Below, piece by piece: positions 3,314-64,000 of a DNA stretch of 64,000 nucleotides. The translations under genes and the position numbers were made by a program. The notes beneath the pieces are model-generated. The model was not told the origin of the DNA. It was given only the letters and a program-made list of their open reading frames with translations, and ran no database searches. Source of the stretch: Candidatus Woesebacteria bacterium (GTDB lineage: Bacteria; Patescibacteriota; Microgenomatia; UBA8517); contig CP066693.1 of NCBI GenBank assembly GCA_016432525.1, positions 721,639 to 785,638 of the forward strand. Direction: 5' to 3'. Each line of letters opens with the position of its first letter. Position 1 is the stretch's first letter.

Positions 3314-5923
3314 TCAAGGAGTTGGGATTGGACTCGGAGCAGGGCTAGGTACACTATCCCAATTCGTATTTACTCCAATTGTAATCACACGATCAGATTG
3401 GTTGTTGTTAGCATCATGTCCAATAGCACGAAGACTGTGAACTCCATTTGCTAAATTTACATTATATTCATATGGAAGAGATGAAAACGAGCGTACTTTA
3501 ACTCCATCTATCTCCAAATCTAAAAGCGCAATATCACTTATAGATTGTGCCTTTACCTTTATCGTAAAGTTGTTGGAAAGATTTGAAGCACGGTCAGTTG
3601 GATTTATAAATTCAACATTTAAAGGATTTGCAGTTCCACAAAAATCACTTGGTGGATGATATTTTGAGTCAGTTTGAGTGTTCAACCAGTTTAAAACTCC
3701 TTCTTGCCATTGGTTCTTTCCTCCAGGGGCTGCAGTTGGATCTTCCTCTTTGAACTTAAAAAATTCACGATTATCGAAGTTGTTTGCAGCAACGTCAGAA
3801 GGCGTTGCCAATTTTCCATCGTTTTTACAAATCTTTAAATTAACATGAATAGGATCATCAGAAGTAGGCTCAGTCCCTTTTATAAAATACTCCTGCCTTG
3901 AAGGAAATCCATCATGAGCCTTATACCCAGACACAGTATCAACATCCATGGTAATAACATCGTCTGGCTTTTTAAAAGAAACAACAGGTTTATCTTTTAA
4001 GCCTTCAATTAAAATTCTTCTCCAAATAGGGGAGGCTCCAGTTACTCCTGATGCAACCTGAAGCATTTCAGAATTATCATTATTTCCAACCCAAACTCCA
4101 ACAAGTCTTTGAGTATCTCCACCAATCGTCCAATTATCTCTTTTATCGTTGGTTGTTCCAGTTTTTACAGCAATTTGTCGTCCTGGAATATTTAATAGTG
4201 AATTAAGTCCAAAAACAGTTTCACGAGCATGATTATCAGACAAAATATCATCAATCAAAAAAGCCTCAGACTCAGTAATAACCCTTTTACCTTTGGTTGG
4301 AGTGTTATTTTCCAAAACTCTCCCTGAAGAGTCCTCAACTTTAAGAATCGATGTTGGTTCAACCCGTGATCCACCATTCAAAAAAATTGAATAGGCATCC
4401 GTAAGCTCTAAAAGTTTCACATCTCCACCTCCCAAAGTCAGTGAAAGTCCAACTCTATTCAAAGTATCCTGTGTTGGTGGAAGAGTGGTTACTCCAGCAT
4501 CATAAGCTGTCTCTAAAACATCTTTAATTCCCACCAAAGCAAGGGTCTTTACAGCAACAATATTGATAGAATTTCCAAGTGCGTATCTGATTTGCATAGG
4601 CCCTCTATATTTTCCATCATAATTAACAGGCTTATAATCAGGATTATCTGCTCCTCCTGGAAAAGTAGTTGGAACATCCATAATCATCGAAGCAGGAGTG
4701 TAACCTTTCTTAAAAGCAGTAACATAAGTAAAAGGTTTAAAAGAAGATCCAGGTTGCCTTAGAGAAGTCGTCACGTTTACTTGTCCATCATAATCTTTTG
4801 CAGCAAAATCTTTTGATCCAACCATTGCAAGAATTTCCCCAGTTTGAGGATCAATCACAACAGCCGCTCCATTTGTTATATGAAGATCATTAACCTTTGA
4901 AATCTCATCTGCTACTATCTGTTGAGCTTTTTCTTGTAAAGACAAATCCAAGGTTGTTGTAACTTTTAATCCTCCTTGTCCAACCACATTCTCCCCATAT
5001 CTATCCTCCAAAATCTTTTGTACATATTGGACAAAATGCGGTGCCTTGAAACTTGCTCCTTGAGGTTGAAATTGTAAATCCGCCAACTGATCATCAGCAC
5101 TTTTTTCCTGATCGCTTGTTATATAGCCATCCTCTCTCATTCTTCTTAAAACTGCTTTCGTCCTATCAATATAAGCCTTTGGGGCACTTGAATAAGGGGA
5201 ATAATAAGATGGCCTTTGTGGAAGTCCCGCCAAAAATGCAGACTCAACCAAATTCAAATCCTTTACTTTCTTGCCAAAATAAGTCTCCGATGCTGCCTCA
5301 ACTCCCCAAGCAGTACCTCCATATGGAGCCTCGTTTAAATACATTTGAAGTATCTGATCTTTACTGTATTTTCTTTCAATCTGGATAGACAAAAGAAGTT
5401 CTTTCACTTTCCTAGAAACTGTCTGCTCAGAAGACAAAAGTACATTTTTAACAAGCTGTTGTGTAAGAGTCGAACCGCTTTGAAGCTGGTGATATCTAAC
5501 AATGTTATATATAGCCCTCAAAATTCCTTTTGGATCAAAACCTTGATGCTGGTAAAAATTTTTATCTTCTATTGAAACAGTTGCCTTCTTTAAATATTCA
5601 GGAATATCTGAAAAACTAACAGGTGTTCTTCTCTCGTTTGTAAAAATATCATACAAAACTGCTCCATTACGATCTAAAATTTTTGTAGAAAATCCCTCAC
5701 GCCTCACAACTTGATCGGGCGATGGAAGATTTACAGTCAAAACAGGGATAGCAATCAAAATAGCTAAAACCACTGCAAAAACCAACAGAAACCCAAATTT
5801 TGCAAATTTTGCAATTCTTTTAGCTCTAACAGTAGATTCTGGTAAATAAGAGGATGAAGTTGAAGAATACGCTCCTGAATAATATCTAGATCGTTTTCTT
5901 CTCCTCAGATAATCTCTCCACAT
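3314..5923 (-). CDS. Class A penicillin-binding protein (glycosyltransferase GT51 + transpeptidase) with C-terminal extension
   Basis: 869 aa. N-terminal TM. GT51 motifs EDKNFYQHQGFD and RKVKE. Transpeptidase SxxK (SSFKPF) and KTGT. Pro-rich C-terminal tail. Confidence 0.85.
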   Translation of the reverse strand: MWRDYLRRRKRSRYYSGAYSSTSSSYLPESTVRAKRIAKFAKFGFLLVFAVVLAILIAIPVLTVNLPSPDQVVRREGFSTKILDRNGAVLYDIFTNERRTPVSFSDIPEYLKKATVSIEDKNFYQHQGFDPKGILRAIYNIVRYHQLQSGSTLTQQLVKNVLLSSEQTVSRKVKELLLSIQIERKYSKDQILQMYLNEAPYGGTAWGVEAASETYFGKKVKDLNLVESAFLAGLPQRPSYYSPYSSAPKAYIDRTKAVLRRMREDGYITSDQEKSADDQLADLQFQPQGASFKAPHFVQYVQKILEDRYGENVVGQGGLKVTTTLDLSLQEKAQQIVADEISKVNDLHITNGAAVVIDPQTGEILAMVGSKDFAAKDYDGQVNVTTSLRQPGSSFKPFTYVTAFKKGYTPASMIMDVPTTFPGGADNPDYKPVNYDGKYRGPMQIRYALGNSINIVAVKTLALVGIKDVLETAYDAGVTTLPPTQDTLNRVGLSLTLGGGDVKLLELTDAYSIFLNGGSRVEPTSILKVEDSSGRVLENNTPTKGKRVITESEAFLIDDILSDNHARETVFGLNSLLNIPGRQIAVKTGTTNDKRDNWTIGGDTQRLVGVWVGNNDNSEMLQVASGVTGASPIWRRILIEGLKDKPVVSFKKPDDVITMDVDTVSGYKAHDGFPSRQEYFIKGTEPTSDDPIHVNLKICKNDGKLATPSDVAANNFDNREFFKFKEEDPTAAPGGKNQWQEGVLNWLNTQTDSKYHPPSDFCGTANPLNVEFINPTDRASNLSNNFTIKVKAQSISDIALLDLEIDGVKVRSFSSLPYEYNVNLANGVHSLRAIGHDANNNQSDRVITIGVNTNWDSVPSPAPSPIPTP

Positions 5924-8016: not shown

Positions 8017-10034
8017 TGGATCTAAGCCAAAGGATTACAACAGTTGAAGGTATTGGTGAAGTATTTGAAAAAAAACTTAAAAACCTTGAGATTTCCAAGG
8101 TTTCAGATCTTTTATATCATATCCCTTTTCGTTACGAAGATTTAACTCAAAAAGTTAAAATCAGAGGTTTAAAAGTAGGGGAAACAGCAACTTTTGTAGC
8201 CCAAGTTTTATCAATCCAAAATATTTTTACAAAATCTGGCAAAAAAATTCAGCTAGCTGTTGTCTCTGACGGAGAATCAGAAATCAATCTTATTTGGTTT
8301 AACCAGCTTTATCTAATCAAAAATCTTCCAATAGGAACGAGCATTTCAGTTTCAGGAAAACTTTCATTTTGGAATAGAAAAAGAGCAATTTTTGCGCCAA
8401 TTTATGAAAAAATAGTTCCAAATTTCGAAAATCTTCACACAGGTCGTTTAGTTCCAGTTTATCCAGAAACAGCCGGTGTTACTTCTAAAAGGCTTAGACA
8501 GATTATTAAAAAATTACTAAAACAAATAGATCCTAATGATTTAAAAGATTTTATTCCCGAAATGGATCTGAAAGATTTAAACTTTCCATCTCTTTTTGAC
8601 TCAATCCAAAAAATTCACTTCCCAAAAAATAAGGATGAAGCAGTTACCTCAAGAAGACGTCTGGCATTCAACGAACTTTTGAGTTTACATCTTGAAAGTG
8701 AAAATAAAAAAAAGGCTTGGCAAAAGAAAAAAAGTTCTCATGTTTTAAAAACAAATCAAAACGATTTAAATAAATTTATTAGAAATCTTGATTTTGACCT
8801 TACTCCATCACAGGCACGCTCAATCAAGGAAATATCATCTGATTTAAAAAATAAAATCCCAATGAATCGTCTCTTGGAAGGAGATGTCGGCTCAGGAAAA
8901 ACAATAATTGCGGCAATAGCTGCGTTTTTGACACACAAAAATAATTTACAGTCTGTTCTCATGGCTCCAACACAAATTCTGGCACACCAGCACTTTCAAA
9001 CATTTTCAAAAATATTTGAAGGAAAAAATCTCAAAATTTCCTTAATTACATCAGCTAACGTAGAAGAAAACGCCAAAGATTCAGATATCTTTATAGGAAC
9101 TCACGCTCTGATTTACAAGAAAGTGGATTTTAAAAATGTCGGACTTGTGGTTATTGACGAACAACACCGTTTTGGAGTTGCCCAAAGATTAAAACTTCTA
9201 GAAAAATCAGAAAAAGGAAAATATAGCCCTCACATTCTAACAATGACAGCAACCCCAATCCCTAGAACTGTTGCATTAACTTTGTATGGAGATTTAGATC
9301 TCTCAACTCTTGATGAAATGCCAAAGGGACGGATTAAAGTTACAACTTGGGTTGTTCCTCCGAAAAAAAGGGCCGCAGGATATAAATGGATAAATGATCA
9401 AATTGAAAAAGAAAAAATTCAAGCGTTTGTAGTTTGTCCTTTAATAGAGCTGTCCGAAAAAGATACAATGAAAGAAGTAAAAGCTGCAACAGTCGAATTT
9501 GCAAATCTCAAAAAAATTTTCAAAACCAGGCGCCTTGCCCTTCTTCATGGAAGGCTAAAATCTGAAGAGAAAACTAAGATTCTCGATAATTTTAAAAATG
9601 GGTCAATCGATATTTTAGTTTCAACTCCTGTTGTTGAAGTAGGGATAGATGTCCCAAATGCAACTATCATGGTAATAGAAGGAGCCGAAAGATTCGGACT
9701 TTCACAGTTACATCAATTAAGAGGAAGGGTAGGTCGGGGGTCTAAAAAGTCATTCTGTCTTTTAATGACTGAATCAAAATCTCCCAAAGTTAAAACTCGT
9801 CTTAATGCTTTAACTCGAGAAATCTCTGGAAGAAAATTAGCCGAAATTGATCTTAATCTGCGTGGCCCCGGCGAAATATTTGGTCTAAAACAATCAGGTT
9901 TCAGAGAACTTAAAATTGCCAATTGGGCAGATATTGATTTAATAAAAAGTTCCAAAAGCTATGCCCAAAAAATCGTCACTAGTCCAAAAAAATACAAAAC
10001 ACTGTTATCTAAACTAATAATTGCCTCAAACTAG
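8016..10034 (+). CDS. recG: ATP-dependent DNA helicase RecG
   Basis: 672 aa. N-terminal wedge/OB region. SF2 helicase motifs GDVGSGKT, VIDEQHRFGV, TATPIPRT and QLHQLRGRVGRG. Confidence 0.9.
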   Translation: MDLSQRITTVEGIGEVFEKKLKNLEISKVSDLLYHIPFRYEDLTQKVKIRGLKVGETATFVAQVLSIQNIFTKSGKKIQLAVVSDGESEINLIWFNQLYLIKNLPIGTSISVSGKLSFWNRKRAIFAPIYEKIVPNFENLHTGRLVPVYPETAGVTSKRLRQIIKKLLKQIDPNDLKDFIPEMDLKDLNFPSLFDSIQKIHFPKNKDEAVTSRRRLAFNELLSLHLESENKKKAWQKKKSSHVLKTNQNDLNKFIRNLDFDLTPSQARSIKEISSDLKNKIPMNRLLEGDVGSGKTIIAAIAAFLTHKNNLQSVLMAPTQILAHQHFQTFSKIFEGKNLKISLITSANVEENAKDSDIFIGTHALIYKKVDFKNVGLVVIDEQHRFGVAQRLKLLEKSEKGKYSPHILTMTATPIPRTVALTLYGDLDLSTLDEMPKGRIKVTTWVVPPKKRAAGYKWINDQIEKEKIQAFVVCPLIELSEKDTMKEVKAATVEFANLKKIFKTRRLALLHGRLKSEEKTKILDNFKNGSIDILVSTPVVEVGIDVPNATIMVIEGAERFGLSQLHQLRGRVGRGSKKSFCLLMTESKSPKVKTRLNALTREISGRKLAEIDLNLRGPGEIFGLKQSGFRELKIANWADIDLIKSSKSYAQKIVTSPKKYKTLLSKLIIASN

Positions 10035-52604: not shown

Positions 52605-53633
52605 TTAACTTCCAATTTTAAATTCCACCACATCCCCATCTTTCATAATATAATCTCTTCCTTCCGATCTCACTTTCCCTTTCTCTCGACAATTTTTCCA
52701 CCCGCCATTTTCTATAAAATCATTGAAATCAACTACATCGGCCTTAATGAATTTTTTAATAAAATCAGTATGAATTACTCCAGCAGCATTTTGGGCATCC
52801 GTGTCCTTTTTTATTGTCCAAGCCCGAACCTCTTTAACTCCAGCTGTCAAAAAAGTAATAAGTCCTAAAGTTTCAAAGGCTTTTTTAGTTAGTCTCTCAA
52901 TCCCCGACTCTTTTATTCCCAAATCTTCTAAATATTTTTCCTGGTCAGCATCTGCTAAATCAGACAACTCAGATTCAATTTTTGCAGAAATTGCAATTAC
53001 TTGATGTACATGAACTCCCAACTTTTGGGCATACTCAATCTCAAGCTTGTTTGCGTTAACTAAATCTCCCTCGTCAACATTCAATACAACTAAATAAGGT
53101 TTCTTTGAAAAAAGAGGTAACTCTTCCTCGTTTTGTTTTTCTTTTTTCTTTTTTTTGTGCTTTTCAGTCATCTCCAAATCAGCAAGATCCAGTTCGGTTT
53201 TTAGAATTTCAAAATCAGATTTGGCCTGCCCACCTACATGCGAAGCTTGCGGCGTGGTGTCAGTTACTCTAATTACATCTTTATCTTTAAATAATCGAAG
53301 GCAAAAACAAATTGCATCCGTCTCACGAATATGGCTTAAAAATTTATTCCCCAGCCCTTCTCCTTTTGAAGCCCCTGCAATCAAACCTGCAATATCTACA
53401 AACTCAACCGTTGCATTAACAACGGGAGGAAGGTCAGTCATTTTCTCAGATTCTTTTGTAACCTCGGCAAGCTGATTTAATCTTCCATCAGGTACTGGCA
53501 CGACTCCAACATTTGGCTCAATTGTTGCAAAAGGAAAATTTGCAGCATAGGCTATCTGTCGCTTTAAAAGAGCATTAAAAAGTGTGGACTTTCCCACATT
53601 TGGAAGGCCTACTATCCCAATCTTCAGTCCCAT
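52605..53633 (-). CDS. ychF: Ribosome-binding ATPase YchF (Obg-family)
   Basis: N-terminus MGLKIGIVGLPNVGKST. C-terminal TGS domain. Confidence 0.9.
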   Translation of the reverse strand: MGLKIGIVGLPNVGKSTLFNALLKRQIAYAANFPFATIEPNVGVVPVPDGRLNQLAEVTKESEKMTDLPPVVNATVEFVDIAGLIAGASKGEGLGNKFLSHIRETDAICFCLRLFKDKDVIRVTDTTPQASHVGGQAKSDFEILKTELDLADLEMTEKHKKKKKEKQNEEELPLFSKKPYLVVLNVDEGDLVNANKLEIEYAQKLGVHVHQVIAISAKIESELSDLADADQEKYLEDLGIKESGIERLTKKAFETLGLITFLTAGVKEVRAWTIKKDTDAQNAAGVIHTDFIKKFIKADVVDFNDFIENGGWKNCREKGKVRSEGRDYIMKDGDVVEFKIGS

Positions 53634-55194
53634 ACTCCAAGTATTGGGTTAACGGTATGTTTATACATGATTCTACCAATCTTCCTTTCTTAATTTGTAT
53701 TTTACTAATTAAATCTCTAAATACCAACTTTTTGTCAGAATAGTCTTGTAAACTTAACACTTTGTTGGCTTTCTGATATAGCTCTTCCACTTCCTCGTTC
53801 GAGATACTACTTTTGATTGAGTTGGTATTATCTAACTCTTTTAATCTTTTGATTAAAACAACTTTCTTATCTTTGGTTTGTTTTATTAGTCCTCTAAGTT
53901 GATCTACATCAATTAAACCTTCTGCGTTCATTTGGGCATATTTCATTTCTTGATTATTTAGATTTAGCAACTTTTCTTTAGTTTCCAATTTTTCATTTTC
54001 TAAAGAAAGATTAACGCTTGATCTGGATTCGGCATATTCTCTAATTTTTCCTTTAATATAACTAGGGTTGGAAATTGTATCTTTAATATTTCTCCACCAT
54101 AAGCCTTCAAGAACATAAACATTGACTCCATCGCAATCACAGGTTCGTAGATCTCTCGGTCGAGCTTTATCACTGCTTCTATAATACCTTTGGGTACCCT
54201 GCGCTCCGTCCCCTACCATTGGGAAGTTGTGGTCACAAAATAATTTTCCTGTAAGTAAATAGTCGTACTTTCTATTTTTACGAGCGAATCTCTTATTCAG
54301 CTTAAGAAGTTCGAGTGATTTATTGTATAAACTTTTATCTTTTATTAAAACTGGAACATCAAAAGGTAACCACTCTTCTCTTGGCCTAGCCTTTCTACTA
54401 TTCTTTTTAACCTTAAAATATTTCTTTACTTTTCTCTCACCCACTACAGCTTCACTTTTATTGTAATAAGCAATTCCAGTAAAATAGGTTTCGCATCTTA
54501 AAATTCTTTCAACTGGGCCTTTCGTCCAAAATCTGCTTTTGCCTTTTTTAGTTGGTATACCAAGATCACTTAATTTCCTTACGATTGAATTAATTGGCAT
54601 TCTTTCAATGACATGCCACCTGAATATTCTCTCAACAACATCTGCTTCTTCGTCATTTACAGTCCAGTGGGTTGGAACCGTTTCAGTTCGTTTAATGTAG
54701 TTGTATCCATATAATGCTTGACCACTAATTACTATCCCATTTTTAGCTTTATACAGCTTACCTCTTCTAAATCTATCTGCAATCTTTATCCTTTCATAGG
54801 CATGGAAACTTCCTAATATGTTTCTAATAAATCCTTGCTCTTCATTTTCAGGATTGATGTCGTGGAGTGATATTAACTTTATGCCAGATTCTTCAATTTC
54901 TTTAATAAGAATAAGTTGATTTGTAAAATCTCTCGATAAACGACCAAGATCATAAACATATATGCGGCTAAATGTTTTACTTTTGATAGCATCACGGAGT
55001 TCATCGAGTGCTGGACGAGCTAAAACAGAGCCAGTCCAGCCATTGTCAATAAATGTATTTGTTTCAGGCAACATGTACTCATCTGCAAGAATAGCTTTTT
55101 TAACTTCTTCAATTTGAGATTCGATTGTCGCTTCCTGTTCTTGTCTGCTCGTTGAAACTCTAACATACAAAGCTGCAGTTTTTGTTTCTATCAT
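53575..55194 (-). CDS. Large serine recombinase (integrase)
   Basis: 539 aa. Resolvase catalytic domain ALYVRVSTSRQ with the Ser nucleophile. Recombinase domain, zinc ribbon, coiled coil. 3' end overlaps the ychF start by 59 nt. Confidence 0.85.
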   Translation of the reverse strand: MIETKTAALYVRVSTSRQEQEATIESQIEEVKKAILADEYMLPETNTFIDNGWTGSVLARPALDELRDAIKSKTFSRIYVYDLGRLSRDFTNQLILIKEIEESGIKLISLHDINPENEEQGFIRNILGSFHAYERIKIADRFRRGKLYKAKNGIVISGQALYGYNYIKRTETVPTHWTVNDEEADVVERIFRWHVIERMPINSIVRKLSDLGIPTKKGKSRFWTKGPVERILRCETYFTGIAYYNKSEAVVGERKVKKYFKVKKNSRKARPREEWLPFDVPVLIKDKSLYNKSLELLKLNKRFARKNRKYDYLLTGKLFCDHNFPMVGDGAQGTQRYYRSSDKARPRDLRTCDCDGVNVYVLEGLWWRNIKDTISNPSYIKGKIREYAESRSSVNLSLENEKLETKEKLLNLNNQEMKYAQMNAEGLIDVDQLRGLIKQTKDKKVVLIKRLKELDNTNSIKSSISNEEVEELYQKANKVLSLQDYSDKKLVFRDLISKIQIKKGRLVESCINIPLTQYLEYGTEDWDSRPSKCGKVHTF

Positions 55195-55358
55195 TATTTC
55201 CCTTCAAATAACTTCTTCAACTTTGCTATATCAACTCTCCAACTATTTCCAAATTTGAAAGCTGGGATTTGGCCTTTTTTGATCATTCGATAAACAGTCA
55301 TTTTATTAACTTTTAGCTTTCTGGCTACTTCGTCTGGTGTTAAGTACTCGTCTTTCAT
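55194..55358 (-). CDS. Excisionase/AlpA-family HTH protein (recombination directionality factor candidate)
   Basis: 54 aa, LTPDEVARKLKVNKMTVYRMIKKGQIPAFKFGNSWRV. Stop overlaps the recombinase ATG (TAATG). Confidence 0.6.
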   Translation of the reverse strand: MKDEYLTPDEVARKLKVNKMTVYRMIKKGQIPAFKFGNSWRVDIAKLKKLFEGK

Positions 55359-55376
55359 ATACTACTTTTACTTACT

Positions 55377-55598
55377 CTAGTTTACTTTTTTTATTGTGTC
55401 AACCCTCTTTTTTTCTCTAATTTCCTTCAAAATTTTATCGAATAAATTGAAGTAAAAATTATTTACTTCTTTTAAATGGTCATCATTTTGTGCAAAATGT
55501 ATTGTGAAGGATAGAGGTCTGATTTTATTCATAGTTCCCTCTTCCCTAATTTGCCTTTCCTTGTAGTATGAAAGGTTATATCTTGACAGGATTGGCAA
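55377..55598 (-). CDS. Hypothetical small protein
   Basis: 73-aa ORF inside the element. Confidence 0.25.
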   Translation of the reverse strand: MPILSRYNLSYYKERQIREEGTMNKIRPLSFTIHFAQNDDHLKEVNNFYFNLFDKILKEIREKKRVDTIKKVN

Positions 55599-55682
55599 AA
55601 ACCTGATATTCCGAATTCTTTTACAGAAAGTTTATCTTTAAAAATAGTTATTTTTTTGTCGCACCAAGAACACACAGATTTT

Positions 55683-57797
55683 TTATTGTTCATTGGCATC
55701 CTTGGGTAGAAGTTCAGTTTGTTTTACTTTTGATTCCGCATTCCGTAATTCATATATACCATTGCGGTTTGCGGAATCATTTGTCGACTCGTTTTTTGCT
55801 AATGAGTAAATATGTGGCTTGGATTTAGTATGAATTACTTCGCCTTCGTTTGTAAGCTCTTTTAATGCAGACTCGACAAGCCTAATGCTACAAATACCAG
55901 ATGCTACAACCAATTCAATAATCTCTGATCTTTTATAATCTTTTTCTCCAAGAATTTGAAGAATATATTCCTTCGCTTCCTCAATTTTGAGTTTATCTGG
56001 TATTTTTTCTTCGTATAGAAATTGGATTTCTCCTTCACCTTGTCTTCTTATGCCAATGAATGGTTTAATCTTTTTCTCTGATTGTTTATTTTTAGTAACA
56101 GATATAACTACTTGGTCAGTGTCTTCCTCTGTTGTTTTTGTAAGAGAAATTACCGTGTCAACTGCTGCTTCCCAGTAATAGCTTCCAACCGCTTCTTCGG
56201 CTTGTCTCCGGCCAAACTTTCTTTCAAGAGCCTGTTCTTTCGACGGATGAATTAGAAATATAAAAGCTAAATTAGGATTACTCTCTCTTAATTCTTTGTA
56301 TTTATCAAAAACCAGTTTTGCATCTTTATCTGTATTGGAATCTTTGTTATGAGTATTTCTTAAAATATCAACAATTACTAATTCAATTTTTTCTTCTGAA
56401 ATTTTATTTTTTACACTTTCAAAGCTACCATTTTGTAGTTCGATAGAAAATGAAGGTAGATTTGAATGATAAATGAATAATGAATCATCAAAATTGAATA
56501 AATTTACTCGTTTCTGAAAATTGCGAGATGGATCGTCATTTGTAACGTATAGAACTCTACTTCTATGTGTTGGAATTTTGTCCCAAAGTGATATTCCTCT
56601 AGTGATACAACTCGCAAAATATAACGCCAACCAAGTTTTGAAAGATTCTCTTTTGGCAACAATTATTGCACTTCCACTACTTGGTATTAGCTCATCAACT
56701 ATCCAGTCAATATCTCCAAATTCTTGTTTTAGAAATTCAGGACCAGTTGGTATCTGAATTGGAACACTTGTAACTTTTTCATTAAGTCCATATCTTTTGG
56801 CTAGTTCCGAAGCTGCTAACGAGAAATTGCCTTTGTGCTTTAATAGTGAAAAAACAGCAAATGGTGTGTATGCTTTGTTTGGCTCAAAAGGAGAACCATT
56901 ACTGGTAAAATTATAGAAAATTCCTGGTGCAATGTGACCAAAAGTTGCTGAAATACCCTTTTCTTTACCAGGTCTCCTAAGAAAAATTGTGTTTGTATTT
57001 TTCTGTTCAAAAACAATCGTCCATCCATTCTGTTTCAAAATTTCTAATGCTTCATCTATTCCATTTTTGTTAAATAGATCCCCCGGACGCTCTCCGTCAA
57101 AATTATTTCCTGAAGATTTAAAATCTTCAGTTGCAATAGGAATAAGGTCGAGCGATCTGGCACATTGGAGTAGTACGTTTCGTTCTTCAGGTGTTATTTG
57201 GGATAAATTACACCAATCTCCCTGAATAAGTTTGTATCCAAGGGTAGGTGAAACTACAAATTGTCCACCAAGACCTCTTGTTTCAATAAAAGTTATTGAT
57301 CTAAGTTTCGGATCTTTTTGTAATTCTTCCTTAGTTGGAAGTCTACTGGCAAGTTTCTGATTTCCCTCTATTTCTTCACACTTCCAGGCTACATGGTATC
57401 CTTCGTGTTGGGTTGTCTCTATAAGAAGTCTGTCAACAAGCCCAGGGCAGATAACATTAACAAGTTTTTCCCAGCTTTCAATAATCTCTTTCGCTCCAAG
57501 ACTCCCATGATTGTCAAAGTCTAAACCTTCCTGATTTCGCAATCCTATACCCCATCTTTTGTTGAGAATACAATCTCTCAATTCTTCTTCTGTAAAGTTC
57601 TTCTTCTCCCAACCTGGAAAGCCAACTGGATATTTTAGTGTTGGATGATCAGGGATGACATCCAAACCGGCTTTTTTATAGGCAAGGGCTGCTTCAAAAA
57701 GTTTATTCATTTCTGCACCTCCTCGTACAGTCTTGATTTTACTGTCCGTATTTGTTGAAAGTATGTTTGAGGTTCTACTCTGATCTTCTTTTGCCAA
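55683..57797 (-). CDS. Replication protein: bifunctional primase-polymerase (Prim-Pol) fused to RecA-like AAA_25/DnaB-like helicase domain
   Basis: N-terminal GLDVIP...WGIGLRNQEGLDFDNH...HEGYHVAW (Prim-Pol). C-terminal Walker A-like region IPSSGSAIIVAKRESFKTWLALYFA. Likely true start at 57710. Confidence 0.75.
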   Translation of the reverse strand: MAKEDQSRTSNILSTNTDSKIKTVRGGAEMNKLFEAALAYKKAGLDVIPDHPTLKYPVGFPGWEKKNFTEEELRDCILNKRWGIGLRNQEGLDFDNHGSLGAKEIIESWEKLVNVICPGLVDRLLIETTQHEGYHVAWKCEEIEGNQKLASRLPTKEELQKDPKLRSITFIETRGLGGQFVVSPTLGYKLIQGDWCNLSQITPEERNVLLQCARSLDLIPIATEDFKSSGNNFDGERPGDLFNKNGIDEALEILKQNGWTIVFEQKNTNTIFLRRPGKEKGISATFGHIAPGIFYNFTSNGSPFEPNKAYTPFAVFSLLKHKGNFSLAASELAKRYGLNEKVTSVPIQIPTGPEFLKQEFGDIDWIVDELIPSSGSAIIVAKRESFKTWLALYFASCITRGISLWDKIPTHRSRVLYVTNDDPSRNFQKRVNLFNFDDSLFIYHSNLPSFSIELQNGSFESVKNKISEEKIELVIVDILRNTHNKDSNTDKDAKLVFDKYKELRESNPNLAFIFLIHPSKEQALERKFGRRQAEEAVGSYYWEAAVDTVISLTKTTEEDTDQVVISVTKNKQSEKKIKPFIGIRRQGEGEIQFLYEEKIPDKLKIEEAKEYILQILGEKDYKRSEIIELVVASGICSIRLVESALKELTNEGEVIHTKSKPHIYSLAKNESTNDSANRNGIYELRNAESKVKQTELLPKDANEQ

Positions 57798-57958
57798 TAA
57801 TTTGTAATTAATTTATCAAGTTCGGAATCTCTTTTGAATATAAAAAGTGATTTATGAAGGTCAATTTTATTTATAGTCTCAATGGGCAAATATAAAGATA
57901 GTGTTACCGCTAAAGCAAGGTCAGAAGTTGTGTAATATTTCTCTTGGTTGATACTCAT
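57707..57958 (-). CDS. Hypothetical small protein upstream of the replication gene
   Basis: 83-aa ORF. Stop abuts the alternative primase start. Confidence 0.25.
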   Translation of the reverse strand: MSINQEKYYTTSDLALAVTLSLYLPIETINKIDLHKSLFIFKRDSELDKLITNYWQKKIRVEPQTYFQQIRTVKSRLYEEVQK

Positions 57959-58077
57959 ATACCGATTATTGGATAAACAAAGTAAGTAGTCACCTTACCA
58001 AGGTAAGCTTTTTGAGGCTGAAGTTGTGCTAATTTATTTTAAAGGTAATATCGGAGTAAGAAAAACAAACTTGGTTG

Positions 58078-58884
58078 TTATCTAATATTATTTGGTTGAG
58101 TCAGAAATTTTAATCTATAGCAAGAAGCTGTGTTGAAACCATATCCTTCATGTACTATCACCCAACGAGTCGTCTTTATTATTTTTATGTTAACTGTGTG
58201 TTTTAATTGCTTAAGGGCTTCTCTTGAACCCAATCCTTTTAATTCAGCAATTTTATGTGGGTTAAGATCAAATAAAATAGTTAGTAAATTAAGCTCTTTT
58301 GCTCCCAATCTTACTATAGATTTTATTCTTGTTAACTCTTTTCCTAATTCTCTTTTAGTCCATCTTTTGCCTGATTGAAATTGGATATTCCCATTACTTT
58401 TTTGCTCTTTAATCAGCCTATCTCTATATTCTTTTAGTTTACTTAGATTAATTTTATGGAAAATCATACTAGAGCCTAAAGGAGTAGCTGGACTTCTATT
58501 AAAATTCTCAAAACAGCCTTCATTTTTAAGTTTGAATAAAAACGCTTCCAATAAATCACGTACTTTAATATGATCTTCAAAGTTAAAGAAATAGTAAGGA
58601 ATACTAAACGAGGTGGGATCATTACCGTTTCCAAGATAAATCGGGCTATCTTTCGCTTCTCTGTGTTCAATAATTAGATTTATAGCATGAAGGTATTTGT
58701 CTTCTTTACTGGCTTGTATTCTGGCATTCTTTGCATCTTCCCTCCGTCTTCTTTCCTCCAAGTCTTGTCTGTGCTCACTTACCCATGTTTCTCTAGCAAG
58801 TCTTTCAAATTCTTCAGTTTTATCAGGAAGAGTTTGTGGATAATAAGCCTGTTTGACTGTAAACCGATTTGTGATCTTGCTCAT
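58078..58884 (-). CDS. Hypothetical protein (element-encoded)
   Basis: 268 aa, charged N-terminus, no recognisable domain. Confidence 0.35.
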   Translation of the reverse strand: MSKITNRFTVKQAYYPQTLPDKTEEFERLARETWVSEHRQDLEERRRREDAKNARIQASKEDKYLHAINLIIEHREAKDSPIYLGNGNDPTSFSIPYYFFNFEDHIKVRDLLEAFLFKLKNEGCFENFNRSPATPLGSSMIFHKINLSKLKEYRDRLIKEQKSNGNIQFQSGKRWTKRELGKELTRIKSIVRLGAKELNLLTILFDLNPHKIAELKGLGSREALKQLKHTVNIKIIKTTRWVIVHEGYGFNTASCYRLKFLTQPNNIR

Positions 58885-58927
58885 TTTAATTTTAATAATG
58901 AGCTGATTATATCAGGAAGAGAGAACG

Positions 58928-59140
58928 CTAAATCAATTCTTTTGGTGAAACTTTTAAGGCTTTCGCTATTTTTACTACTGTATCGGTTGAAGGATTTCTT
59001 TCACCACGTTCAATATATCCTATATAAGCTCTATTTAATCCAGCATCTAAAGCTAATTGTTCTTGTGTAATTTCTTTTCTTTCCCGTATTTTTCGAATGT
59101 TTTTTCCTATCTTTTTAGAAACTGTTGTTACTTTTATCAC
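58928..59140 (-). CDS. XRE-family (Cro/CI-type) HTH transcriptional regulator
   Basis: ITQEQLALDAGLNRAYIGYIERGERNPS. Confidence 0.8.
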   Translation of the reverse strand: MIKVTTVSKKIGKNIRKIRERKEITQEQLALDAGLNRAYIGYIERGERNPSTDTVVKIAKALKVSPKELI

Positions 59141-59203
59141 ACATACAGTTTCTCTAGATCTTTACTAGCAGTCGACTTACTAGTAGTATATATTAAGGTT
59201 TAA

Positions 59204-59446
59204 ATGGATAATATTTTACAAAAAACTATATCTGGAGCAATAGTAGGAATACTCCTATATTTGTGTTGGTATGTTTTACCCCAAATTAAAAAGCGTTGGA
59301 TATTCAAGTTAGAAACTAAACTTAAGCAAAAAGGATTGGAAACACGATATAAAAAACTTCACAAAATTATCAAAACGATTTTGTATATGATTTTAGTGCT
59401 AATGATTATTACTCCAATCATTTTTTTAATTTTTCTAATGTTTTAG
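59204..59446 (+). CDS. Small membrane protein
   Basis: 80 aa, 2 TM. Divergent from the XRE gene. Confidence 0.3.
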   Translation: MDNILQKTISGAIVGILLYLCWYVLPQIKKRWIFKLETKLKQKGLETRYKKLHKIIKTILYMILVLMIITPIIFLIFLMF

Positions 59447-59456
59447 AACATCAATC

Positions 59457-59684
59457 ATGATTAAAATAATATATAAACAAATAATATTGATCTTTTTACT
59501 ACTTCTTCTGGTAGCAATTATTTTTGTGTGGCCTATGTTTGCTAGGAACAATTGTATGAATTTAGTTCAACATGAAATAGATGCTCCCGGTACAGTTGCG
59601 ATAAGCCGATTGAATACCGATTACCGTCTATGTTTAGCTAAACACGGAGTTAAGCCAGAAGCTCTTTTCTCGTCTACACCCTAG
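59457..59684 (+). CDS. Small membrane/secreted protein
   Basis: 75 aa, N-terminal TM. Confidence 0.3.
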   Translation: MIKIIYKQIILIFLLLLLVAIIFVWPMFARNNCMNLVQHEIDAPGTVAISRLNTDYRLCLAKHGVKPEALFSSTP

Positions 59685-59687
59685 CAA

Positions 59688-60104
59688 TTACTGACCAGCA
59701 ATAGGTAATATAGTTCTAATGTGTTCAATCACAGCATGTAATTCAGCATGAACTCCGATATCTATATTGTCTGTTTGAGCGTATTTATTCCTTAATTTGT
59801 AATACATATCAATTGCTCTCGCTTTTACAGACAAATCTGCACTTTGATTAACTAAAAACCAATGTTGAGCTGCCACATTTTCATCATTTAATCCTGATTT
59901 TTCTAGTAAAGAGTTTATATAGGCCAAAATGTGAGGTTTTGTAAGGTTCTCTGAGGCTAGACTTTTGGCCAAGATTCTGTCTGGATGACCATCTTTCTTG
60001 TTTATCCTATACCCTGCCCTTAGAATTGACTCTGTGCCGTTACCTAATGTTTCTATGTAGTGTTGACAGAACAGTTTTTGTTTAATTGTTAACTTGTTTT
60101 TCAT
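59688..60104 (-). CDS. Phage terminase small subunit (Terminase_2-like)
   Basis: LTIKQKLFCQHYIETLGNGTESILRAGY matches the TerS N-terminal HTH region. Confidence 0.7.
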   Translation of the reverse strand: MKNKLTIKQKLFCQHYIETLGNGTESILRAGYRINKKDGHPDRILAKSLASENLTKPHILAYINSLLEKSGLNDENVAAQHWFLVNQSADLSVKARAIDMYYKLRNKYAQTDNIDIGVHAELHAVIEHIRTILPIAGQ

Positions 60105-60167
60105 ATTTTTATTCTAACCTATAGATCAATTATTTGCACATAAAATATCTGATAGAATGGTCTAAAT

Positions 60168-60746
60168 ATGACGATTAGCAAAAGAATGTTTATTGCCCTA
60201 ATTTTATTTGTTATTGCCAGTACAATTGCTTACAAATTAAGAATACAAAACTCAATTGTGAAATCAGAACCAAAAACTGAATTGCTAAATTTTACTCCAA
60301 CTGATTTGCCTGAAAAGAAAGTATTTGGAAGTTGTTGGGTTAATTCATTAGCTTCATCTAATCCAAAAGCATGGAGATGTACAGTTGATCATGGCATTTA
60401 CGATCCATGTTTTGATATCGAAGGAATTGTTGTTGTTTGTGGTGTAAAACCAGGAAGTGAAAATAAAGATAGTTTTATAATTAACCTAACGAAACCATTG
60501 CCTACAAACGAACAAAATAACGACTGGCACCCTTGGATCATGGAACTTTCAAATGGTCTCAGGTGTACCAAAATCACTTGGGCTGCTGATTCTCTTGATG
60601 GAGAATATTATTTCTATATATGTGATAAAGATGAAGCTGTTGTACTGGGAAATATAGATACATCAAATCCTCTTTGGGAAGTAAAAGTTGGTTATCGCGG
60701 CACAACAAAAACGGATCAGTATGATGTAATAAAAGCTTGGAGATAA
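60168..60746 (+). CDS. Secreted Cys-containing hypothetical protein
   Basis: Signal peptide or TM then 8 Cys. No homology recognised. Confidence 0.4.
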   Translation: MTISKRMFIALILFVIASTIAYKLRIQNSIVKSEPKTELLNFTPTDLPEKKVFGSCWVNSLASSNPKAWRCTVDHGIYDPCFDIEGIVVVCGVKPGSENKDSFIINLTKPLPTNEQNNDWHPWIMELSNGLRCTKITWAADSLDGEYYFYICDKDEAVVLGNIDTSNPLWEVKVGYRGTTKTDQYDVIKAWR

Positions 60747-60820
60747 AAACACCTAACTAAATACAAGTAAATAAATAATTTATTTTGATATTTAATTTAT
60801 ATACTAAGCTTAACAATTTA

Positions 60821-61897
60821 TCACACTTGATATTTTTTAATTCCACTCATGTTATTTTGAATATCAACATCAGAAACAATTCCAACACTATACTTTGCCC
60901 TAGTAATGGCAACATAAAACTTTGATCTACTTATAGGAGCTAACTCAGAGTTATTATCTTTGAGCCATTTGATTATTGGCTCTGTTGGATACAAAATTAC
61001 TCTTTCGAACTCTTGACCTTTAGAATCTCCGAAGTTAGCATATTTATATTCCTTATCAATATTTGTTCTTGAATCATTTCGTAATTGGATTGGATTATGT
61101 TTTGAAAGATAGGATTTAACATCTTTGCTTTTTATTACAAATACTCCATCATGACCAGTTTTGCTTGCATTTCCGCACAAAGTTTTCGTGAGATTTGGGT
61201 AAAGTTTGTTCGATAATTCACATATTAAAGTCGAGCTACGATAATTTGTAGTTAACGAAGTAGTATCTGTCTCGATTGTTATTGATTTATCTCCAAAAAA
61301 ACTTAATATATTTGCCCTCTTATATTTTCTGTTTTTAGAAGAGTTGCTTGTGGAATACGTTCCTTGTCTTGGATCACCAACCAAGAGTAAATTAGATTTA
61401 CATTTGAGAAGTAGTTTTAATAATTCTAAATCATATCCTGATAGATCCTGTATCTCGTCAATATAGATATGTTGGTAAATCCTTGATATTCTATTAACTA
61501 CTTCTCCTTTACAACAACTATTACATTTAAGTACAAATTTAGTAAGTTTATCTGAAAATATTCTTTGATTTTTTGTAAAATAATGATTTTCTGTATCACC
61601 TTCAGGAACATAAGGGGCTGATTGAGAACTCACTAAAACCATTCCTTTTATGTCTTTGTCATAAACACTACCCTGATATGGTTTTGCACCATGTTCTAAC
61701 AGAAACGAAAACCATGTCTGAATTGTAATATTCTCTGGAATAAATTTATTAATCTGAATTATTTTCTTACGAATCTCTTTTTCATTTGACCGAGTATATG
61801 TAGTTATTAAAACATTTTCGTCCTTGCAAACTAGTGCACTTTTAACTAAAAAAGTAGTTTTCCCTGATCCCGCTGCACCTATAACCAACTTGTTCAT
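60821..61897 (-). CDS. Short UvrD-like SF1 helicase (GajB-like partner of OLD nuclease)
   Basis: 358 aa. Walker A IGAAGSGKTT, Walker B YIDEIQDLS, motif VI-like YVAITRAK. 8 nt downstream of the OLD-family gene. Confidence 0.65.
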   Translation of the reverse strand: MNKLVIGAAGSGKTTFLVKSALVCKDENVLITTYTRSNEKEIRKKIIQINKFIPENITIQTWFSFLLEHGAKPYQGSVYDKDIKGMVLVSSQSAPYVPEGDTENHYFTKNQRIFSDKLTKFVLKCNSCCKGEVVNRISRIYQHIYIDEIQDLSGYDLELLKLLLKCKSNLLLVGDPRQGTYSTSNSSKNRKYKRANILSFFGDKSITIETDTTSLTTNYRSSTLICELSNKLYPNLTKTLCGNASKTGHDGVFVIKSKDVKSYLSKHNPIQLRNDSRTNIDKEYKYANFGDSKGQEFERVILYPTEPIIKWLKDNNSELAPISRSKFYVAITRAKYSVGIVSDVDIQNNMSGIKKYQV

Positions 61898-61905
61898 GTT
61901 TATTT

Positions 61906-63567
61906 TTAACTAATAGCATTGAGAATATATTGTGGAAATTTGATCGATTCTTTGGTATCAAATATTGCTAATGCACATTCGGTTTTATTTCCTTTCATAT
62001 ATGTTAATAGCTCACTGTCTGTTTTGAATTGTTTTCCAAAAACTTTATTTAATATTTCCAGGCTGTTTACTTTAAGTAGTTTTGGCTCAAGCGTATTGTA
62101 GTTAAATGTTGAACCATTAATCATTGGTCCCGTATCTACAGTGGCACTAAAGCAAATTTTGATTTTAGACTTAGTTTTAGATCCAAGATAATTTTCATAC
62201 TTTTTATTTAAAGAATTTACATCTCCATCATTGTCTGTAACAACTATTACTTGCTGATCTATCTTTTCAGCAATTTCTAAAAATCTTAAAAACGAAGTCC
62301 CTACAGAAATTACATCTAATCCGTCTTCTATTGGAAGTTTTTTGTAACTCACCAAATATGCCTTTTGTACTGCCAACTCGTCCGAGTCACCTTCAACCAA
62401 AATAGCTTTTTTACATAGAACAAGCCTGAGTGTGTCATATCCAGGAATTTTTTCAAAGAATTTGTAGGTATCGGGACTCAATTCGGTAAGCGGAATTGTT
62501 TTCCTTTCTTTGAGTAGGGTTAAACTTTCTAGACCTAATTTATTTGCTACAAAGCTACTATGCGTAGTTACTACTATTTGTTTTCCCTCACAATCATCTT
62601 TAATGTCATTTATAAATTGATTAAGTTTTGTATGGGAAAGATGATTTTCTGGCTCCTCTAATAATATTAGATTGGCATATTGGCTTTTTCCGTTACTTAG
62701 CGCAAGTTTGGTTTTTATAATACACTGTTCTCCTTTCCCGATTTGCTGGAACGGAACATCGTCCAAGTATGCCATTAAACTACTTTCCCATGCATTTTTT
62801 GGGGTTAAATCAACTGATAATTTTAGTTCCTTTTTTGAAATATTTGTTGCATTTTTTATTTTTGTGTTGATATTCACAATAGGGGTCTCTGAGAGGAAAA
62901 ATTCTTGCATTTTTCTAAGGGTTTGTGAAATACCTACCATATCTTCATTTTCTAGGTGATTTCTCAATATATAAGAAATATAAATATCCGAACCGTTCTG
63001 GTAACGATAACTCGAAGAGTCGATTAAGGCTGATTTAATTGGAACGCTTGTTGATTTTGTAATTGGTCCTCTAGCACAATCATTCCATTCAACTTCGTAA
63101 TATTCAGTTGGAATATTTTTAACATTTCCGCCTTTGATAAATTCAGCATATTCACCTTTATATTTATCATTGAATGCTATTTTCATTGAAACACAACATT
63201 CTTTCTTCTTTTCAGAATTGCCGTCTCCTTCAAATGAAGGTAGTTCGTCTCCCGCTATAAACACTTCGATTAGTATGTATGGAGGTATTGCTCCTGTACC
63301 AGCAGTTTTAATATATTCAGCGACGACCTCGTTGTTAAAAAGGTTTTGGCTCAGTTCGTTTTTAATATAATGTCCATTTATTAATCCTGTAAGAGCTAGG
63401 TGAATTGCTTCTAAAATAGTTGACTTTCCAGTTTCATTGTCTCCAACCAATATATTAAGACCTTGTTTTAATTTAAGATTAAATTTACCCTTGAAACATT
63501 TGAAGTTTTCGATATTAACTTCTTTTATATAAATTGTAGAATCTTTAGAATTCATTTTTTGTTGCAT
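61906..63567 (-). CDS. OLD-family ATP-dependent endonuclease (ABC-type ATPase + Toprim), GajA-like
   Basis: 553 aa. N-terminal Walker A VGDNETGKST, D-loop ILLEEPENHL, H-loop TTHS. C-terminal Toprim LVEGDSDE ... VVTDNDGD. Confidence 0.8.
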   Translation of the reverse strand: MQQKMNSKDSTIYIKEVNIENFKCFKGKFNLKLKQGLNILVGDNETGKSTILEAIHLALTGLINGHYIKNELSQNLFNNEVVAEYIKTAGTGAIPPYILIEVFIAGDELPSFEGDGNSEKKKECCVSMKIAFNDKYKGEYAEFIKGGNVKNIPTEYYEVEWNDCARGPITKSTSVPIKSALIDSSSYRYQNGSDIYISYILRNHLENEDMVGISQTLRKMQEFFLSETPIVNINTKIKNATNISKKELKLSVDLTPKNAWESSLMAYLDDVPFQQIGKGEQCIIKTKLALSNGKSQYANLILLEEPENHLSHTKLNQFINDIKDDCEGKQIVVTTHSSFVANKLGLESLTLLKERKTIPLTELSPDTYKFFEKIPGYDTLRLVLCKKAILVEGDSDELAVQKAYLVSYKKLPIEDGLDVISVGTSFLRFLEIAEKIDQQVIVVTDNDGDVNSLNKKYENYLGSKTKSKIKICFSATVDTGPMINGSTFNYNTLEPKLLKVNSLEILNKVFGKQFKTDSELLTYMKGNKTECALAIFDTKESIKFPQYILNAIS

Positions 63568-63600
63568 TTTTAAAAATCTACTTCAAACTATTTTCATGTT

Positions 63601-63999
63601 TTAATTTTTACTAAACTTTTTCACCGCATCCTTAAACATAGCATTCCCTGTCATATTCCATTTAACATAATTAGTAACTTCACTAGCGGGAACAAATCTT
63701 CTCTCCCAAATATCACCGTTATCTGGATCTGGAGTTTGGGGGAGTAATTCATCAATTTCACAAATACATCTAACTTGGTAAATAAATTCATTTGGTTTCT
63801 CTTTTGGGTATGCCTTTTGAATTCCAAGAATTTTAATATTTTTGACTTTTACATCAACTTCTTCAACCATTTCCCTTTCCAAAGATTGTTCTGTGGTTTC
63901 ACTCTTTTCAGGATGTCCACCAGGAATTTGCCATTCGCTATCTTTATTTCTTCTGCAAATTAAAATCTCATTTTTGTCATTAAAACAAATTCCATACAC
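63601..63999 (-). CDS. NUDIX hydrolase
   Basis: Nudix box GGHPEKSETTEQSLEREMVEEVDV. 33 nt upstream of the OLD gene on the same strand. Start may lie beyond the window edge. Confidence 0.8.
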   Translation of the reverse strand: MYGICFNDKNEILICRRNKDSEWQIPGGHPEKSETTEQSLEREMVEEVDVKVKNIKILGIQKAYPKEKPNEFIYQVRCICEIDELLPQTPDPDNGDIWERRFVPASEVTNYVKWNMTGNAMFKDAVKKFSKN

Positions 64000-64000
64000 T

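Follow-up and report, generated by a model that had tools for sequence, protein, structure and literature searches.

A probable integrative island in the ychF gene of a Woesebacteria chromosome, inserted by a serine integrase whose gene spans attP

The DNA analysed here (hereafter the window) is a stretch of 64,000 nt from the chromosome of a Candidatus Woesebacteria bacterium (GCA_016432525.1, CP066693.1, positions 721,639 to 785,638), and its distal part very probably belongs to an integrative island of 17.2 kb, with an older 1.1-kb module at its left, that was put into ychF by a large serine integrase (Int) whose own gene spans the attachment site attP. The host, a member of the Patescibacteria or Candidate Phyla Radiation (CPR), is a tiny uncultured bacterium, and ychF is an essential-type, universally conserved gene. 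NCBI proteins identical to its recombinase and YchF (P0001/P0121) bear the name Candidatus Woesebacteria and are encoded on a 916-kb contig. Past window position 64000 all sequence was read from an identical public contig (L001, from Logan), which matches the window at 100% identity across 12095 nt with 0 mismatches and reaches window-equivalent 73567 (L001 position p corresponds to window 73568-p). The main island occupies L001:2704-19949, that is, window 53619 to window-equivalent 70864, the window holding its int-proximal 10.4 kb; with the extra left module counted it measures 18.4 kb, and it runs 7-8 kb past the window end to left ends at window-equivalent 70866 and 71991. Comparison with related loci shows that a family of large serine integrases sends islands into ychF through what is, judged from the aligned junctions, an exchange at a GG dinucleotide.

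Insertion point in ychF and the island family

The target gene ychF (52605..53633, minus strand, 342 aa, with Pfam domains MMR_HSR1 and YchF-GTPase_C) is intact, and its first 59 nt (53575-53633) are overlapped exactly by the 3' end of int (53575..55194, minus strand, 539 aa in the integrated form). Comparison of loci L016 and L069, together with alignment of the attL and attR junctions, revealed that the first 15 nt of ychF (ATG GGA CTG AAG ATT) are island-derived. These two loci represent one host (98.2% identity across the 8.8 kb downstream of ychF) with two different islands, and their ychF genes differ at nt 4-15 and agree fully from nt 16 on, which places the crossover directly after nt 15 and indicates that the island donates an ATG and five codons. 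Since these substitute codons lie in the right attP arm, which is the int 3' end, ychF remains intact. Strand exchange falls at the GG at ychF nt 16-17 (window 53617-53618, minus strand), and attR (53590..53665, minus strand) comprises a P arm formed by the last int codons and including CCCAATACTTGGAGT, the replacement ychF start, the central GG and a B' arm formed by ychF codons 6-14. A GAAAGGAG-like box also lies within int, ~50 nt upstream of the ychF ATG (window 53683-53692; L001:19876-19885); its DNA is conserved in most related loci and the residues that it encodes vary between islands (KKGR, KERS, ERSG).

A position-specific scoring matrix (PSSM) made from ychF nt 1-20 and run over L001 to locate the left junctions scored 20.2 at L001:1562, 19.1 at the real start of ychF and no more than 6.8 elsewhere. 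The site at L001:1562 reads tgTTAAAATagcttcATGAATCTGAAAGTT-GG-GATACACTTTTCACTAACCCAACTTTTG, where a -10-like box precedes the original codons MNLKV and island sequence comes next, a P' arm standing directly after the ychF-like start; this outer junction is attL-1 (GG at window-equivalent 71990-71991). An inner P' arm was located at L001:2703-2822 by a search with the conserved Int extension described below, and the inner junction, which has a TATAAT box and a ychF-like start of its own (ATGAGCTCACATCTTTCTATA-GG), is attL-2 (GG at window-equivalent 70865-70866; L001 junction 2681-2822). The inner P' arm (TATTCCAAAAATAGAATTT) and the peptide encoded there have their match in L006 and in the proximal L012 island, the two with the most closely related Int, and the main island is on this account taken to span L001:2704-19949; the 1.1-kb segment between both left junctions, carrying a methyltransferase gene, is a separate, older module.

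Equivalent left junctions were located in eleven other loci, giving 12 attL/attR pairs in all. The GG at nt 16-17 is the sole step common to attL and attR in 10/12 islands, the attL/attR register of the remaining two (L020 and L066) being 3 nt off and hence outside that count. Sharing beyond the GG extends to as much as 8 nt in individual pairs, and in L001 the sequence common to attR and the outermost left junction is TTGGGATA (~8 nt), plus codon-level similarity. The reconstructed attP is an inverted repeat with the P and P' arms in register and each copy ~14 nt from the GG, the left copy having the consensus CnAAAAGTTGGGAYA and the right copy being its reverse complement. Short sites, a 2-bp crossover, an inverted-repeat attP and ends without long direct repeats make up the anatomy expected of a large serine integrase. 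The predicted attP junction is ...CTTGGAGTATGGGACTGAAGATTGGAATCCACAGGCTACTATTCC... and the predicted repaired ychF junction ...TATAATTCCAGTATGAGCTCACATCTTTCTATAGGGATAGTAGGCCTTCC...; resolved by left junction, attP-2 would read CCCAATACTTGGAGTATGGGACTGAAGATT-GG-AATCCACAGGCTACTATTCCAAAAATAGAATTT and attB-2 TGATATAATTCCAGTATGAGCTCACATCTTTCTATA-GG-GATAGTAGGCCTTCCAAATGTGGG, and attP-1 would have the left arm of attP-2 followed by -GG-GATACACTTTTCACTAACCCAACTTTTG, with attB-1 as TGTTAAAATAGCTTCATGAATCTGAAAGTT-GG-GATAGTAGGCCTTCCAAATGTGGG.

Generic repeat searches, as well as blastn and tblastn searches with the att region, gave nothing above noise, because the ends left by serine integrases share too little sequence. 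The seemingly empty locus L009, in which a NUDIX gene lies 33 nt upstream of ychF, had suggested that the island ends between gajA and the NUDIX gene (window ~63600); this was ruled out by the PSSM and the P' arms, which put the junctions at L001:1562 and 2681, and also by L009 itself, which has an attL-type junction 5.4 kb upstream. A homology break between L059 and L077 at 'ATGA' was likewise rejected as an island end and is a cargo-swap point. The GC content of the island (0.31-0.35) is slightly lower than that of the host (0.359 +/- 0.016), which is not decisive.

A preliminary description of the window, made from its letters alone, had proposed an integrated mobile island with an att site inside the 5' coding region of ychF, and the att junctions, the empty sites and the different islands at the same site bear this out, as does the position of the crossover. 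The 59-nt overlap that it gave for int and ychF is exact, and its expectation that the island goes on past 64 kb proved right. Its suggestion that the island carries replacement codons for the ychF N-terminus is correct for the ATG and five codons and not for the full 59-nt overlap. The ychF 5' end does recur at the other end, where a repeat of 53575-53640 had been anticipated, with ~8 nt shared and no long repeat; as serine integrases leave no long repeat, that check was not fully apt. The comparison with related genomes that it called for found either empty sites or different islands at ychF, and it could see neither the splitting of int nor the stacking of left junctions nor that the whole family targets ychF.

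Use of this site is widespread. In another Woesebacteria genome (L006-L008) a 62%-identical recombinase overlaps the ychF start and is accompanied by wholly different cargo, and a metagenome scan queried with an alignment of 32 recombinase relatives returned 80 loci, 68 of them decidable, in 63 of which a recombinase of 38-62% identity abuts ychF, again with differing cargo. Empty sites were found in L011 and L093, where YchF homologues of 77-80% identity have neither recombinase nor island arm upstream. The bounded relatives (n=12) measure 6.8-10.4 kb and lack virion genes in 12/12 cases; their cargo differs completely from island to island, and the family core consists of int, the HTH_17 gene, DUF5659 and a variable replication gene, the conserved family proteins being mostly without a Pfam match. 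A profile search of genome contigs with YchF returned only distant Bacillota loci, and of the deposited phages Wolbachia WO has the recombinase that matches best, at 32%. The island family using the ychF site is large and previously unreported.

The split int gene and the stacked left junctions

Joining the P and P' arms lengthens the Int open reading frame (ORF) by 36-57 residues in 12/12 islands, and the added parts have in common the motif RD..FTVPtFeFyFkFvLPKPRKERlIIERDqLGRIVHSK. In the present island the integrated protein (Int-539) ends ...EDWD-SRPSKCGKVHTF, its tail being 13 residues of ychF read out of frame; the joined form (Int-565) made with arm 1 ends ...EDWD-TLFTNPTFDFYFRLKLPNPNKKRIIIERNMLGRVVYFQ, and arm 2 gives a similar tail (...IPKIEFSSIFILPNPRKARLILERDILGRIVSS...). 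The codons for a conserved C-terminal extension of 38 residues lie at the far end of the island, and the ORF is intact only in the joined (circular or tandem) form. As the int ORF spans attP, integration turns full-length Int into a truncated isoform. The extension was tested by pairwise differences by codon position, which came to 0.40/0.23/0.61 in the part lying 45-110 nt from the crossover, past any plausible att site, and to 0.68/0.61/0.68 just past the motif, so that the extension is a protein under purifying selection rather than a conserved DNA site. It is carried by 4/120 best database homologues (P0025, P0040, P0071 and P0077) and by 4/5 metagenome loci whose int does not adjoin ychF, all of them at P-GG-P' junctions; loci with full-form Int at such junctions are L021, L031, L082, L083, L174 and L176. 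The decayed remnants L009 and L092 have lost the extension frame.

What remains after integration has the layout of a large serine integrase. The catalytic domain (Pfam Resolvase, 6.2e-28, residues 7-153) retains Y10, R12, V13 and S14, which are invariant in 32 relatives, and is followed by the Recombinase domain (PF07508, 2.5e-13) and by a Zn_ribbon_recom match (PF13408) which, at 1.4e-3, lies under its gathering score; the whole protein matches the PHROG integrase at 1.9e-72. An AlphaFold model of the relative P0025 has long helices at 365-465, as expected where a long helical insertion accompanies the Recombinase and zinc-ribbon domains. The island is present in a second assembly as well (GCA_016178105.1; L005:3841-5319), which gives an Int of 492 aa with 91% identity, next to neighbour proteins that are 100% identical; the shorter Int may reflect an internal deletion or an assembly error.

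We found no report in the literature of a serine integrase gene spanning attP, and recombinases whose action interrupts the gene that encodes them are known from archaea alone, according to a review of archaeal recombinases (PMC8371274). The integrases of the Sulfolobus spindle-shaped virus (SSV) type, called 'suicidal', likewise have the att site inside their own gene, which integration partitions (PMC8371274), and in the family at ychF the ORF crosses P-GG-P' in 12/12 islands as well as in the free or tandem forms. Those are, however, tyrosine recombinases of archaeal viruses and plasmids in which the catalytic domain is separated, whereas the serine integrase of the island loses only the conserved ~38 C-terminal residues and retains its catalytic and DNA-binding domains. 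The nearest bacterial analogy is the integration-dependent immunity of mycobacteriophages BPs and Brujita, where attP lies inside the repressor gene (PMC9262239). In both cases attP stands in the 3' part of a gene of the regulatory module and the C-termini of the integrated and free forms differ; in the phages, however, it is the repressor gene that is split, by a tyrosine integrase with a tRNA target, and the removed tail is a degradation tag, whereas here the integrase itself is affected.

Insertion also exchanges promoters. In 13/14 empty or left-junction sites a TAAAAT or TATAAT box, in many cases with a TGn extension, has its end 6-7 nt ahead of the ATG, and no Shine-Dalgarno (SD) sequence is present at those ychF starts, for which reasons ychF of these Patescibacteria appears to be leaderless. 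Sites of this type lie, for example, at L001:1540-1565 and 2660-2685, L009:9984-10003, L011:2125-2146 and L012:1105-1130. The left junction or junctions retain the original ychF start with its -10 box, now directed into the island: the outer promoter copy of L001 faces a 20-codon ORF and then the methyltransferase gene, and the second copy faces the exonuclease and glycosyltransferase genes. Where the site is occupied, the -10 box no longer stands before ychF, the int 3' end having taken its place, and expression of ychF would come from read-through or from a weak internal promoter. Coupling of a small upstream ORF to the ychF start was considered and dropped, an SD-like box lying too far from the ATG of that ORF.

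Stacked left junctions like those of L001 occur elsewhere, in L012 (three), L069/L088, L033, L079, L046 and L174, and tandem arrays with P-GG-P' junctions in L075, L084, L174 and L031/L059, the last pair implying another island, of 18.1 kb. Among the loci for which the layout was recorded (L012:1127, 3914 and 4764; L069:134 and 847; L174:1460, 3545 and 11586; also L033 and L079), each stacked junction combines a promoter box with 5-7 ychF-like codons, a GG and a P' arm, with modules of 0.7-2.8 kb between them, a layout like that of a cassette array. In L009 an attL-type junction is followed by 5.4 kb of cargo and then by an intact, promoter-bearing attB-like site, and there is no int; the ychF promoter and start form a 37-nt direct repeat (4523-4560 and 9984-10020, 35/37 identical), with a P' arm after the left copy and genes for a GreA-like protein, an oxidoreductase, an aminotransferase and two NUDIX proteins between the copies. 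This combination of attL and attB is not a product of simple serine-integrase chemistry. L092 (8936-10020) holds a miniature element of 1.07 kb at ychF, in which a single SLFN_AlbA_2 gene lies between P' and P arms with no integrase, and the core of its left junction is AG, not GG.

The stacked promoter-bearing junctions and the self-partitioning integrase gene are unusual features of an otherwise ordinary class of element, the site-specific defence island. It is conceivable, if on balance rather doubtful, that the ychF site of Patescibacteria is a 'landing pad' for serine integrases in which both, so far unreported, have a role: an int gene spanning attP would act as a commitment or directionality switch, truncated Int either needing a full-length copy or the HTH_17 protein for excision or being specialised for it, and the modules stacked by successive events, each with a leaderless ychF promoter, a few ychF codons and a P' arm at its head, would let the site grow as a promoter-equipped cassette array of defence and metabolic genes.

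Gene content and the question of a phage satellite

Genes were annotated from the ORF listing and profile searches (Pfam, PHROG, PADLOC), and every gene named in the preliminary description was found in its place, including a terminase small-subunit gene (terS) with no large subunit or structural gene and a defence cargo that proved to be real. Next to int, and sharing one base with its start (a 1-nt overlap), ends the ORF of an excisionase-like protein of 54 aa (55194..55358, minus strand; Pfam HTH_17, where HTH is helix-turn-helix, 1e-14; PHROG excisionase 1.7e-10), which is a candidate directionality factor or regulator; tblastn across loci places an HTH_17 gene beside int in most related loci. 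Two small overlapping ORFs of 73 and 56 aa (55377..55699, minus strand), the former also present in the closest islands L006 and L012, are followed by a gene for a replication protein with a primase-polymerase (Prim-Pol) and a RecA/DnaB-like AAA_25 domain (55683..57797, minus strand; PHROG DNA polymerase/primase 2.6e-34, AAA_25 1e-21), which public gene calls start at 57710 and give as 675 aa. Upstream of it lie a DUF5659 gene (57707..57958, minus strand, 83 aa), which recurs directly upstream of the replication gene in the family, and a gene for a 268-aa protein without assigned function (58078..58884, minus strand), whose slot is syntenic across islands. The AlphaFold model of the latter (predicted local distance difference test score 75) suggests winged-helix-like domains and had no Foldseek match in the PDB better than E 0.06. 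An XRE-family HTH regulator (58928..59140, minus strand, 70 aa; Pfam HTH_3 2e-18) is the first gene of this string, which runs from XRE to int, and is present in 9/12 bounded islands.

Divergent from XRE are two small ORFs of 80 and 75 aa (59204..59684, plus strand) which are hydrophobic as judged from their sequence. They are followed by the orphan terS (59688..60104, minus strand, 138 aa; Terminase_2 1.1e-12, phrog_51 1.8e-16) and by a gene for a 192-aa protein with an N-terminal hydrophobic segment and no family match in the profile searches (60168..60746, plus strand). The defence cargo, to go by gene content, is a complete Gabija system: gajB (60821..61897, minus strand, 358 aa, PADLOC GajB 6.1e-131) and gajA (61906..63567, minus strand, 553 aa, PADLOC GajA 1.3e-211; Pfam AAA_15 and OLD-like_TOPRIM) are adjacent, with a spacing of 8 nt. 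Like known Gabija systems, the pair combines an ATPase and TOPRIM protein of OLD type with a UvrD-like helicase, both with full-length PADLOC matches; unlike them, this GajB belongs to a short (~360 aa) subtype. The NUDIX hydrolase gene that is cut by the window end (63601..64000, minus strand, full gene to 64098) is island cargo and not host flank. Past 64098 L001 carries, in order, genes for a second NUDIX protein, an alpha/beta hydrolase, a cytidine/dCMP deaminase, a nucleotidyltransferase-like protein of 271 aa, a 421-aa protein without assigned function, GT1 and GT2 glycosyltransferases and a DEDDh exonuclease, then attL-2, the methyltransferase gene and attL-1; a glyoxalase gene lies after the methyltransferase gene. 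The exonuclease (177 aa, L001:2886-3419, window-equivalent 70149-70682) is a full-length match to the PADLOC 'effector exonuclease' (1.7e-64), with no recognisable partner system nearby. Among the relatives, reverse transcriptases occur in 3/12 other islands, and genes for a UvrD-like helicase, a PD-(D/E)XK (Cas4-like) nuclease and a trypsin-like protease make up left-end cargo of the terS-bearing island L059 (142-3788), perhaps as an uncharacterised defence set.

Across the whole island, the window part and the rest on L001, no capsid, portal, tail, large-terminase or lysis family was detected, the single 'portal protein' match in PHROG being a NUDIX domain. No PolB family was found among the island proteins, Rfam gave no matches, and a promoter and terminator scan returned fewer hits than shuffled sequences did.

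From this gene content a cycle can be proposed in which Int alone would integrate the island by attP x attB recombination, and excision would require the adjacent HTH_17 protein and/or full-length Int from another copy. The primase-helicase would replicate the excised circle, packaging by a helper phage would be enabled by the orphan terS, and the host would be protected by Gabija and the other cargo, which would pay for carriage in this way. The island may thus work along a satellite route like that of the phage-inducible chromosomal islands (PICIs), as the preliminary description had read from the gene set, a reading to which we give close to, and not above, an even chance. Like PICIs such as the Staphylococcus aureus pathogenicity islands, it has a terminal integrase, a small HTH regulator, a primase-helicase and accessory defence genes, occupies a site-specific position in a conserved gene and has a packaging-hijack gene, terS, without the rest of a packaging, virion or lysis module. 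Relatives of its terS (~42% identity, aligned over residues 4-117) are found in IMG/VR viral contigs; in L095, the one contig of these that was inspected, an unannotated 423-aa ORF comes after the terS homologue, at the place where a large terminase would lie. PICIs differ in using a tyrosine integrase, in their divergent int at the element end, where int is here the last gene of a long co-directional string, and in their capsid-size-redirection and interference genes, of which the island has none that is recognisable; its host, moreover, is a CPR bacterium.

Several observations weigh against a satellite or against parts of the proposed cycle. terS occurs in 3/12 bounded relatives, plus L059 and L077, and is missing in the other nine, and L029 and L037 (7542-9119 in each), elements of >10 kb at the same ychF site that were seen in part, have a full-length TerL-like gene (phrog_675 1.3e-90; GpA_ATPase) directly before the HTH_17 gene and int. 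No helper phage is known for the island, and its recombinase family has no relative among 2.9 million IMG/VR viral contigs. Neither a circular junction nor an empty-site allele of this island was found, the 90% clusters of Int and YchF holding one sequence each and the predicted junctions not having been searched in raw reads or metagenomes; tandem and dispersed repeat searches, a weak method here, detected no iterons or replication origin. At 17 kb the island, which may be composite, exceeds most relatives, the AlphaFold model of full-length Int has low confidence for the C-terminal extension, and an island whose integrated Int is truncated may be unable to excise alone.

Part of this evidence favours another reading, a real possibility if well short of an even one, in which the island is a plasmid-like defence element that replicates itself, excises and integrates by means of a serine integrase of its own and spreads independently of phages, by natural transformation or otherwise, and terS is a leftover or a DNA-binding regulator. 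The patchy presence of terS, a family core reduced to int, HTH_17, DUF5659 and a variable replication gene, the lack of recombinase relatives in the viral contigs and a cargo of mostly defence and metabolic genes all fit such an element; neither a relaxase nor a coupling protein nor any other transfer function was seen among the island proteins, however, the match of the island terS to phage terS has to be explained, and the narrow size range of the relatives together with their TerL-like gene hints at a packaging link. It is improbable that the island descends from a temperate phage by loss of the structural and lysis modules. The integrase, XRE, replication and terS genes are all phage-like by PHROG, and the same-site elements of >10 kb carry the TerL-like gene as well as a homologue of the Thoeris inhibitor Tad4; yet 12 bounded relatives in various hosts lack virion genes and still keep their att arms and Int-extension frame intact, which does not fit independent decay, and the true decayed remnants (L009 and L092) look different, with no int and a broken extension. 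Most improbable of all is a fixed, domesticated region, in which the recombinase would be immobile and the arrangement kept since int read-through controls ychF expression, as in a defective pneumococcal prophage adjoining ychF. The missing -10 box of ychF at occupied sites, the int 3' end before it and the truncation of integrated Int would suit this, and such a prophage, its int abutting ychF, is said to control ychF (PMC8637289), which offers a precedent; it is opposed by the single host species with two different islands, by the empty sites, tandem arrays and attP-type junctions, by the completely different cargo of relatives and by the purifying selection that still acts on the separated Int extension. 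An integrative island placed in ychF by its serine integrase thus remains our favoured explanation, with the satellite route as its more tentative part.

Two other groups of elements invite comparison. PLE, the PICI-like element of Vibrio cholerae, is a phage satellite with a large serine recombinase (PMC6002521) and likewise protects its host against phage; it has no sequence relationship to the island, its integration target differs, and the helper phage supplies its directionality factor, the island having instead an HTH_17 gene coupled to int. Those pipolins of Actinomycetota that bear large serine recombinases (LSRs) are also LSR-borne integrative defence islands and have been reported to use ychF as an integration target (PMC11551731). 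Pipolins are defined by a primer-independent PolB (piPolB), however, and the island has an archaeo-eukaryotic-type Prim-Pol fused to a helicase and no PolB, and neither the exact crossover nor a split int has been described for them.

Meaning for CPR bacteria and for serine integrases

Our literature search found nothing linking Patescibacteria with phage satellites or serine-integrase islands, and the mobile elements and phage biology of CPR bacteria are poorly known. The islands at ychF, at >60 loci, are the first bounded and mechanistically readable family of mobile islands in CPR/Patescibacteria, and they carry Gabija, reverse transcriptases, nucleases and other defence genes. They also provide orthologous large serine integrases by the dozen, whose attP and attB sites (~50 bp, GG core) are defined and which are useful in the search for integrase tools. 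An int gene that spans attP, with an extension present only in the excised form, amounts to a natural experiment on the control of direction in serine integrases, and the split int would extend 'self-partitioning' recombinase genes from archaea to bacteria. For the host, promoter exchange at a gene that appears leaderless would mean that the ychF promoter is given over to cargo and that ychF becomes dependent on the island.

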